A DNA stretch of 9,380 bases, from IMG/VR virus record IMGVR_UViG_2663762849_000001, one strand, 5' to 3'. Origin of the DNA: a virus. Its lineage: Monodnaviria; Loebvirae; Hofneiviricota; Faserviricetes; Tubulavirales. Numbering within the stretch: position 1 is the first letter of the stretch; every line of letters starts with the position of its first letter. Of the stretch, positions 6,161-7,915 are shown one piece after another. A model generated the notes under the pieces. That model had not been told where the DNA came from. It did no database searches and worked only from the letters and a program-made list of their open reading frames with translations. Position numbers and translations under genes: made by a program.

Positions 6161-7915
6161 ACTCCGCTCGCCGCAGACCCAGCGACCGAACGTAGTGAGC
6201 GAGTGGTCGAGGAAGCGGAAAGGCACCATTACCGGCCCCGGGCACTTACGCTCTGCTGCCTGCTTCGGGCACTTATGCTCTTTGCTGACATGGTCAACCA
6301 GCTTACTGGCTGTGCAGAACACGACGCGTACAGGCGATGGTGTTGCCTGTTGATGAAACTGATGGCTGACAGCGTGCTCCCCTGTAGTGTGCACCGCAGC
6401 TTAATCCGTGCTTTGTTTCCATGGACTGCACCTGCCTGCCGGACTGGCAGGTCTGACGGATGAACAGAGAGGCAGAATGCTTCAGTTGCGCGTGTGATGG
6501 CACCGCTCGCCGCAGACCCAGCGACCGAACGCAGTGAGCGAGTGGTCGAGGAAGCGGAAAGGCACCATTACCGGTCCCGGGCACTTACGCTCTGCTGCCT
6601 GCTTCGGGCACTTATGCTCTTTGCTGACATGGGCAACCAGCTTACTGGCTGTGCAGAACCCGACGCGTACAGGCGATGGTGTTGCCTGTTGATGAAACTG
6701 ATGGCTGACAGCGTGCTCCCCTGTAGTGTGCACCGCAGCTTAATCCGTGCTTTGTTTCCATGGACTGCACCTGCCTGCCGGACTGGCAGGTCTGACGGAT
6801 GAACAGAGAGGCAGAATGCTTCAGTTGCGCGTGTGATGGCACCGCTCGCCGCAGACCCAGCGACCGAACGCAGTGAGCGAGTGGTCGAGGAAGCGGAAAG
6901 GCACCATTACCGGTCCCGGGCACTTACGCTCTGCTGCCTGCTTCGGGCACTTATGCTCTTTGCTGACATGGGCAACCAGCTTACTGGCTGTGCAGAACCC
7001 GACGCGTACAGGCGATGGTGTTGCCTGTTGATGAAACTGATGGCTGACAGCGTGCTCCCCTGTAGTGTGCACCGCAGCTTAATCCGTGCTTTGTTTCCAT
7101 GGACTGCACCTGCCTGCCGGACTGGCAGGTCTGACGGATGAACAGAGAGGCAGAATGCTTCAGTTGCGCGTGTGATGGCACCGCTCGCCGCAGACCCAGC
7201 GACCGAACGCAGTGAGCGAGTGGTCGAGGAAGCGGAAAGGCACCATTACCGGTCCCGGGCACTTACGCTCTGCTGCCTGCTTCGGGCACTTATGCTCTTT
7301 GCTGACATGGGCAACCAGCTTACTGGCTGTGCAGAACCCGACGCGTACAGGCGATGGTGTTGCCTGTTGATGAAACTGATGGCTGACAGCGTGCTCCCCT
7401 GTAGTGTGCACCGCAGCTTAATCCGTGCTTTGTTTCCATGGACTGCACCTGCCTGCCGGACTGGCAGGTCTGACGGATGAACAGAGAGGCAGAATGCTTC
7501 AGTTGCGCGTGTGATGGCACCGCTCGCCGCAGACCCAGCGACCGAACGTAGTGAGCGAGTGGTCGAGGAAGCGGAAAGGCACCATTACCGGCCCCGCGCA
7601 CTTACGCTCTGCTGCCTGCTTCGGGCACTTATGCTCTTTGCTGACATAGGCAACCAGCTTACTGGCTGTGCAGAACCCGACGCGTACAGGCGATGGTATT
7701 GCCTGTTGATGAAACTGATGGCTGACAGCGTGCTCCCCTGTAGTGTGCACCGCAGCTTAATCCGCGCTTTGTTTTCATGGACTGCACCTGCCTGCCGGAC
7801 TGGCAGGTCTGACGGATGAACAGAGAGGCAGAATGCTTCAGTTGCGCGTGTGGTGGTACCGCTCGCCGCAGATCCGGCGACCGAACGCAGTGAGCGAGTG
7901 GTCGAGGAAGCGGAA
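6161..7915. repeat. Tandem array of a 339-bp unit: five full copies (6164-6502, 6503-6841, 6842-7180, 7181-7519, 7520-7858) plus a 57-bp partial sixth copy (7859-7915)
   Basis: Exact 339-bp periodicity seen in the sequence and in the repeating ORF-track entries; copies 2-4 are identical, copy 1 differs at 4 positions, copy 5 at ~9. Starts 11 nt after the pI-like stop and ends 38 nt before the secretin start. Confidence 0.95.

Follow-up and report, generated by a model that had tools for sequence, protein, structure and literature searches.

What is a long tandem repeat doing between two assembly genes of a filamentous phage? The question is raised by the IMG/VR record IMGVR_UViG_2663762849_000001, a stretch of 9,380 nucleotides (hereafter the window) that corresponds to a filamentous (inovirus) prophage with all of its genes on the + strand. 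A tandem array of five 339-nt units and a terminal 57-nt core (6164-7915, + strand) separates gI from gIV; Tandem Repeats Finder reported for it a period of 339, 5.2 copies and 98% identity, and units 2-4 of the window array are 100% identical to each other in the BLAST map of the units. The original prediction had described each unit as a pair of iteron-like direct repeats accompanied by a short hairpin. Our analysis replaces these "iterons plus hairpin" by a specific known element, duplicated and amplified: the unit is probably an amplified single-strand initiation (ssi) signal of the ColE1 type with a duplicated 3' box, acting as a PriA-type complementary-strand (minus) origin in 5+1 copies. 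The interval originally singled out had missed the strongest feature of the unit, a 57-nt palindromic core located just upstream (6503-6559).

Each 339-nt unit opens with this 57-nt imperfect palindrome, CCGCTCGCCGCAG...GAGGAAGCGGAA, followed by a variable spacer (~21 nt) and then by GGCACTTACGC. A blastn search with one unit as query hit over 2800 plasmids and 1460 E. coli replicons; the similarity was confined to unit positions 1-96 and amounted to 78-85% identity for the plasmids. The top-listed plasmid matches are small (2-4 kb), most of the matching plasmids are predicted to be mobilizable, and the best-matching ones are small RepL-type, Rep/MobQ or MobA plasmids. A pBR322-type vector record has the homologous 57 nt ~125 nt past the RNA II/DNA switch and oriented like RNA II, hence on the displaced strand; the boundaries mapped for the factor-Y site of pBR322 are taken as given here. 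The ssiA site of ColE1/pMB1 (pBR322), also termed n'-pas (primosome assembly site) or rriA, is a PriA-dependent primosome assembly site on the lagging-strand template. In constructs carrying the pBR322 origin, this PriA site, which serves the lagging strand, has been located past the RNA/DNA switch (PMC3167613), and an 82-nt stem-loop ssi is found beside oriV in ColE1-like plasmids (PMC5935869). The window core and pBR322 ssiA have identical arms (CCGCTCGCCGCAG, GAGGAAGCGGAA), with 84% identity over 57 nt to the vector copy, and the same sense relative to the strand that becomes single-stranded; pBR322 itself carries a C-T-T-ACGC box ~24 nt downstream, as in the window. Unlike ssiA, the window site is located between phage assembly genes and not beside an RNA II origin, and it is repeated six times in tandem, each unit having two boxes and a further 220 nt. 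Its inner stem is of the CCCAGCGACC type found in small Rep-encoding or mobilizable plasmids, whereas that of pBR322 is of the CCGAACGACC type.

The closest sequence relatives are the ssi-like palindromes of the pHW126 family and of other small Rep/Mob plasmids (pIGRK, pIGMS31; L003-L006 in our set). The literature on the pHW126 family gives the order ssi-like palindrome, conserved region, iterons, rep; these plasmids differ from the window in that their ssi precedes a conserved region and Rep-specific iterons, with no tandem amplification reported. In one phage relative with a single ssi copy (L146, the contig also designated L012), the site hardly differs from that of plasmid pE100117_3 (L004), and the resemblance extends to the spacer and to the flank GCACTTACGCACGGTATAA. 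The motif GAAGCGG, a consensus motif of PriA sites, is present in every window copy and twice (CCGAAGCGG, GCGAAGCGCGG) in the phiX174 F-G intergenic region, which we take to be the location of the n' (PriA) site of that phage. The two systems would share complementary-strand priming on circular viral single-stranded DNA (ssDNA), as proposed here for the window, together with GAAGCGG and a hairpin; they differ in that the phiX174 site shows no extended homology, is single-copy and carries the motif on the 5' arm of its hairpin. Judged from its sequence, the unit core is a homolog of the ssiA / n'-pas primosome assembly site of ColE1/pBR322-type origins.

The covariance model R1, which was built from 19 plasmid sites only, recovered exactly six matches in the window and nowhere else in it, all of them full length, on the + strand and with E-values of 1e-15 to 4e-20. 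Five matches open the units (starts 6164, 6503, 6842, 7181 and 7520; 86-88 bits) and the sixth (7859-7954; 70 bits) closes the array:

6164-6258, + strand: ssi copy 1 (core 6164-6220, variable spacer, box); R1 87.7 bits, E 4e-20, full length.
6503-6597, + strand: ssi copy 2 (core 6503-6559, spacer 6560-6577, then the box); R1 86 bits, E 1.1e-19.
6842-6936, + strand: ssi copy 3; R1 86 bits.
7181-7275, + strand: ssi copy 4; R1 86 bits.
7520-7614, + strand: ssi copy 5, whose box copy has a G-to-C change at CCCGCGCAC; R1 87.3 bits.
7859-7954, + strand: terminal ssi (core 7859-7915, own spacer TATCTTCATGACTGAAAAACA); R1 70 bits, E 1.3e-15.

The terminal ssi reaches the gIV ATG (7954) and could be aligned with the single-copy relatives L145-L148 and with plasmid L004. 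Its box is single (GCACTTA-ACGG at 7937-7947) and shows, when compared to L145-L148 (GCACTTACGCACGG), a 3-nt deletion after GCACTTA that is common to the window and the array-carrying L001-type phages.

The helices of the model are 97% paired on 53 distinct sequences. Within the core helices, four pairs account for 38 cells changed on both sides, a value reached by 0/500 shuffles and collapsing to at most 3 cells in slid controls, in an alignment (A6) that was itself fitted to the model. In the phage relatives L145 and L147, CCCA/TGGG is replaced by TTTA/TAAA on three consecutive pairs. The core hairpin is kept by compensatory changes.

All six ssi matches are on the + strand, the coding strand of every gene. 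Inoviruses package the strand of coding sense, which in the window would be the + strand. Sites of the R1 type are present in at least three other inovirus groups: a second array-carrying lineage termed B, and a Zot-type group and Ff-like phages that came from searching IMG/VR for the pattern and then applying R1. In lineage B the ssi is located between traX and gIV; in small Zot-type phages devoid of gIV (L157, L167-L171, L173, L174, L181, L186, L189) it lies 0-170 nt past the Zot-like gene; in the Ff-like L154 it starts 8 nt past the gIV stop, and in the Ff-like L183 it comes after a methyltransferase-like open reading frame (ORF) that follows gIV. The related single sites accordingly sit after the last assembly gene or after one extra gene. 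These groups have the outer arms in common with inner stems that are entirely different, and ssi and genes are on the same strand in every contig. This recurrent placement and strand is the strongest comparative argument for action on the packaged strand, and a complementary-strand origin is its most economical reading. A further ~22 IMG/VR contigs, most of 19-40 kb, have an R1-type ssi with a longer inner stem (104-nt matches, 36-50 bits; L151-L153, L158, L159, L161, L162, L164, L166, L172, L175, L178, L180, L184, L187, L190-L193, L195, L196, L199, L200). The three that were checked (L151, L159 and L187) encode on the same strand a P2 gpA-like replication endonuclease, 27-30% identical to the window gII, and P2-like phages may therefore carry an ssi signal as well.

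As we picture the mechanism, each unit would open with a ~95-nt ssi signal of the ColE1 ssiA / n'-pas type, consisting of palindrome, spacer and box. On the packaged + strand, after infection or rolling-circle release, the core would fold into a hairpin to be recognised by host PriA, which with PriB, DnaT and DnaC would load DnaB and primase; the complementary (minus) strand would be primed and the ssDNA converted into the replicative form. The role would be the same as that of ssiA on the displaced strand of ColE1 plasmids and of the n' site in phiX174. Cloned ssi signals reportedly rescue M13 lacking its minus origin (Nomura and Ray 1980; Masai et al. 1990, cited in PMC3167613). The same role is played in the Ff phages (M13/f1/fd) by the minus origin, a hairpin pair with -35/-10-like elements that is read by the RNA polymerase holoenzyme as a promoter mimic; Ff intergenic origins lie after gIV, which is where the ssi of L154 is found. 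A scan that reads linear sequence and not folded ssDNA gave no promoter-like feature of this kind in the window array. Tandem amplification of an origin-bearing segment is a property of defective Ff (f1) miniphages. The window differs from such multimers in being a complete prophage, with an amplified segment that carries only the putative minus-strand signal.

The position of the element would also suit a function in RNA, with hairpin and box acting in the gI-gIV transcript (processing, stability, Rho-dependent polarity or gIV translation) and the array serving as a long untranslated spacer that tunes the secretin. The terminal ssi ends at or at most 3 nt from the gIV start in the window and in the single-copy lineage-A relatives (lineage A being the group of L001 and L145-L148), the element is on the transcribed strand, and compensatory changes cannot separate RNA from ssDNA. 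No sigma-70 promoter was found on either strand of the array region (6100-8000) by a scan that reads linear sequence and not folded ssDNA, so that gIV probably depends on read-through; a search for intrinsic terminators in the array gave one terminator-like site, within chance expectation. However, the same element is found elsewhere after the last gene (Zot-like or gIV) with no gene close behind, plasmids carry it in quite different transcriptional settings, for instance past the end of the ColE1 primer, and an Rfam scan of the whole window gave no match at E up to 1. We regard an RNA-level role as quite unlikely.

We then come to the direct repeats. The 16-nt repeat had been placed exactly, with CGGGCACTTACGCTCT at 6578-6593 and CGGGCACTTATGCTCT at 6605-6620, 27 nt from start to start, and it is genuine since 3000 shuffles of the 339-nt unit give a P of ~3e-4 for a repeat of 16 nt with at most one mismatch within 60 nt. 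The count of ten copies was also borne out, in the form of extended 23-nt copies, two per unit, spaced by 27 and 312 nt alternately; one of them, at 7588-7610, has one substitution. The two members of each pair, direct repeats 1 and 2 (DR1 and DR2), are located as follows:

6578-6593, + strand: DR1, conserved 3' box of the ssi family (GCACTTACGC); equivalents at 6239-6254, 6917-6932, 7256-7271 and 7595-7610.
6605-6620, + strand: DR2, duplicate of the box 27 nt downstream; equivalents at 6266-6281, 6944-6959, 7283-7298 and 7622-7637.

In a comparison of 14 units drawn from two phage lineages, variation is lower in the core and in both boxes than in their spacers: variable sites per nt amount to 0.07 in the core, 0.56 in the spacer (10/18 nt), 0.11 in DR1 (2/18 nt), 0.56 between the repeats, 0.06 in DR2 (1/18 nt) and 0.21 in the remainder of the unit. 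For comparison, ~40 distinct plasmid sites were gathered. Of 37 natural plasmid sites, 31 have a box C-N-(T/G)-ACGC at 21-25 nt past GCGG(A/C)A, irrespective of replicon type, and no second box was seen in any plasmid site examined. Repeat copy 1 is thus the conserved 3' part of the ssi family, and copy 2 is a 27-nt duplication of the box, specific to phage arrays. The terminal ssi of lineage B is only 75% identical, yet both boxes are kept, 27 nt apart; the doubled box is old.

Could the ten GGGCACTTAYGCTCT repeats nevertheless be an iteron array, that is, double-stranded DNA (dsDNA) sites for a replication initiator of phage or plasmid origin or for another DNA-binding protein? Plasmid iterons resemble them in being short direct repeats near a replication signal. 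The repeat is real, both copies are conserved across two phage lineages, the 27-nt spacing is retained even in the diverged lineage-B terminal copy, and the fixed distance between box and core in plasmids would fit a protein footprint. Iterons, however, usually form one cluster of at least three regularly spaced repeats, and the unit has two copies 27 nt apart followed by a 312-nt gap before the next pair, a doubling found in no plasmid. Iterons are moreover specific to a replicon or its Rep, and the box follows the ssi core in RepL-type, other Rep, MobQ/MobA and ColE1-type plasmids, with Reps that are unrelated or, in the ColE1 type, missing. Some box-bearing plasmids possess, 60-100 nt beyond, 22-nt iterons of unrelated sequence: these follow the ssi in L003 and L004, and L003, L004 and L005 each have different iterons of their own. 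The only candidate binding proteins of the window are the gII nickase and gV. We consider an iteron array very unlikely, and the term "origin-like" is kept in another meaning, that of a homolog of an ssi or primosome assembly site read on ssDNA.

The box shows no covariation with the inner core and forms no consistent hairpin. A minimum-free-energy hairpin between DR1 and the core segment GAGCGAGTG was rejected, this pairing being unsupported because the box is constant where the inner core is wholly different, in plasmids as in phages. A small hairpin inside each repeat (GGGC-ACTTAC-GCTC) was also discarded, with one-sided changes only and no consistency across plasmids. Equating the box with the "conserved region" of pHW126-type plasmids is probably wrong: another shared motif, AACCCGCATGAAT, lies further downstream. 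It takes the form AACCCGCATGAAT(C/A)CT downstream of the ssi box in the small Rep plasmids L003 (770-790), L005, L092, L119 and L130, and may be the pHW126-type conserved region, distinct from the box.

The rest of the unit contains the second element of the original prediction, the inverted repeat CCTGCC-GGACT-GGCAGG. Features of this part are:

6623-6841, + strand: orphan remainder, unit positions 121-339, including the two inverted repeats below.
6670-6690, + strand: inverted repeat ACAGGC...GCCTGT.
6774-6790, + strand: hairpin CCTGCC-GGACT-GGCAGG; also at 6435-6451, 7113-7129, 7452-7468 and 7791-7807.

The hairpin is present (unit position 272) and does not exceed chance: shuffled units contain on average 0.58 perfect 6-bp stems with a loop of 3-8 nt, and the probability of at least one is 0.38. 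Lineage-B units carry it with a 1-nt deletion or an uncompensated C-to-G change; of the features expected to be conserved in homologous units, the direct repeats are and the small hairpin is so only loosely. No compensatory pairs were found in the 220-nt remainder (0/96), neither strand of the unit folds better than shuffles, and no copy of the remainder was found outside these inovirus arrays in E. coli genomes, plasmids, IMG/VR or metagenomes. A packaging (morphogenetic) signal, or another ssDNA hairpin function, could be sought in this segment: inovirus packaging signals are imperfect hairpins in intergenic DNA, and the remainder does hold two short inverted repeats. But L145-L148 have no remainder at all and are otherwise complete phages, and the absence of covariation and of folding above shuffles in the remainder leaves this function extremely improbable.

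Coding capacity was also considered. Each unit contains ORFs, of 102-107 amino acids on the + strand (e.g. 6140-6463) or of 83-93 amino acids on the - strand (e.g. 6482-6733, repeated per unit), and both PGAP and another pipeline annotate hypothetical proteins there; the 339-nt period is divisible by 3 and the ATG of the first + strand ORF overlaps the gI stop. On the other hand, the 71 variable sites are split 24/23/24 over the three codon positions whichever phase is taken, 1-nt indels separate the units (337-341 nt long), the ORFs vary in length, no frame is free of stops in any unit, there is no Pfam or PHROG match, and tblastn found nothing outside the arrays. Small proteins are hardly credible under these conditions: the ORFs 6140-6463 (+) and 6482-6733 (-) and their repeats are not genes.

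Copy number varies widely among relatives. In lineage A, L145-L148 have no unit and one ssi, L013, L014 and L140 have 1+1, and L001, L011, L138, L139 and L150 have 2+1; the window array (5+1) is the largest seen. The array start is always 14 nt past the gI stop in the window and its lineage-A relatives, and lineage-A arrays always end in an ssi with its own spacer and a single box, at or at most 3 nt from the gIV ATG. The lone ssi of L145-L148 ends 3 nt before this ATG, and the terminal ssi resembles those of plasmid L004 and of the single-copy phage L146. The array has a G+C content of 59%, compared to ~48% in the remaining phage. Lineage B shares 28-60% identity with the window in its proteins and 67-70% in its flanking DNA, yet 91-95% in its array units, and both lineages are found together in one strain. 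The contrast between unit and flank identity, the presence of both lineages in one strain, the foreign G+C content and the direct repetition of the 57-nt cores suggest that two inovirus lineages have swapped units, and that the array most likely originated, and expands or contracts, through recombination or slippage between these cores.

The same observations suggest that the array could be a selfish or passenger repeat which came from a plasmid through recombination and grew by unequal crossing-over or replication slippage, serving the phage in at most one copy. Copy number ranges from 0 to 5 units among near-identical phages, units 2-4 are identical, the G+C content is foreign, units are far more alike between lineages than the flanking genes, both lineages occur in one strain, and the remainder is an orphan devoid of coding or structural signal. 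Yet at least one ssi is kept in every relative examined, including the four without extra units, and the core stem is kept by compensatory changes. As an alternative to a minus-strand origin it is rather unlikely; it concerns the amplification and not the ssi itself, and is compatible with such an origin.

Several features of these relatives were noted in passing. In lineage B (L002, L008, L009, L010, L015, L017), an IS110-family transposase gene adjoins gII, and traX, encoding an F-pilin acetylase, separates gI from the array. Three E. coli strains each harbour 10-11 copies of this lineage per chromosome, inserted at different loci, a Proteus IncC plasmid carries it too, and it appears to be a transposing filamentous prophage. 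Giant arrays, suggested by matches at 35 places per genome, were rejected: this number reflects the 10-11 prophage copies per chromosome. In L011 (Citrobacter plasmid OV141394, IncFIB/HI1B) and L150 (E. coli 100416, chromosomal dif), the prophage is present as head-to-tail tandem dimers.

The gene order of the window after gII is gV, coat genes, gIII with Gly/Ser linker repeats, gVI, gI/Zot and gIV. The features that frame the array are:

124-2124, + strand: gII-like nickase.
4948-6150, + strand: gI/Zot, matching the PHROG family of M13 protein I.
7954-9162, + strand: gIV secretin, matching the PHROG family of M13 protein IV.
9216-9243, + strand: dif site with one mismatch at the right prophage end, outside the repeat.

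Close relatives in E. coli are inserted between hipA and ydeT, and the left prophage end is outside the window. In the left flank of L001 (5245-5345), two inverted dif-like half-sites surround a perfect GGCCGCTGCG/CGCAGCGGCC hairpin (DNA fold z -9.0), resembling the folded ssDNA attP that CTXphi uses for XerCD integration. Positions 1-123 of the window, upstream of gII, are unlike L001 5800-5924 and form another mosaic junction. The C-terminal half of gIII and the whole of gVI (3207-4930) are swapped relative to L001, L016 and L138, phages that are otherwise 97-99% identical; the swapped gVI has 26% amino acid identity, and the exchange corresponds to a mosaic receptor-binding/assembly module. 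Within gIII, Gly/Ser-rich tandem repeats (3824-4075, periods 15-78 nt) are the usual flexible linkers of the inovirus adsorption protein. No close relative was found in a collection of isolated phages, which gave no DNA match and gI identities of at most 35%; the window gI is ~31% identical to that of Ff.

How well, then, does a complementary-strand origin account for the locus? Homology, strand, position and covariation together point to a PriA-dependent minus-strand origin. Several points weigh against it. The dependence on PriA comes from homology only, and ssi sites are dispensable in pHW126-type plasmids, where their loss results in multimerisation. Another minus-strand origin could exist in the main intergenic region, which is not fully inside the window. 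Unit DNA has no more folding stability than its shuffles (z -0.3 to -0.4). As transcription runs through the element between gI and gIV, selection on its stem could be exerted at the RNA level. The proposal accounts neither for the box and its duplication nor for the 220 nt per unit, and the contrast between units (91-95% identical) and flanks (67-70%) fits a recently spread passenger equally with a selected module. A bolder extension, to which we give a small chance, makes the array a selected, horizontally exchanged "origin amplifier" that would set the speed of conversion of incoming or newly made viral ssDNA into dsDNA through several PriA loading sites, with the doubled box and a dedicated 220-nt segment.

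A search of the literature for ssi in natural inoviruses or for a printed ssiA sequence returned nothing useful, a review of YpfPhi makes no mention of such repeats, and no description of a plasmid-type PriA site in a natural filamentous phage was found in the literature searched. The recognition of the ssi explains the spurious "hypothetical protein" calls made by annotators in the repeats, and draws attention to a part of the ssi family not studied so far, the conserved box at 21-25 nt from the hairpin. The complementary-strand start of non-Ff filamentous phages is, to our knowledge, largely uncharacterised. The array provides a concrete candidate for it in non-Ff inoviruses, a plasmid-type PriA primosome assembly site, which would tie inovirus replication to host proteins of replication restart instead of to RNA polymerase. 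With the window's own group counted, such sites were seen in five inovirus groups, in the coding sense throughout. Were the array an origin amplifier, it would tune replication versus integration in a phage that apparently integrates as folded ssDNA at dif via XerCD or, alternatively, it would titrate PriA, interfering with host replication restart or with hairpin-sensing defences. In this bolder reading the ColE1-type ssi would, more broadly, be the general complementary-strand origin of several non-Ff inovirus groups.

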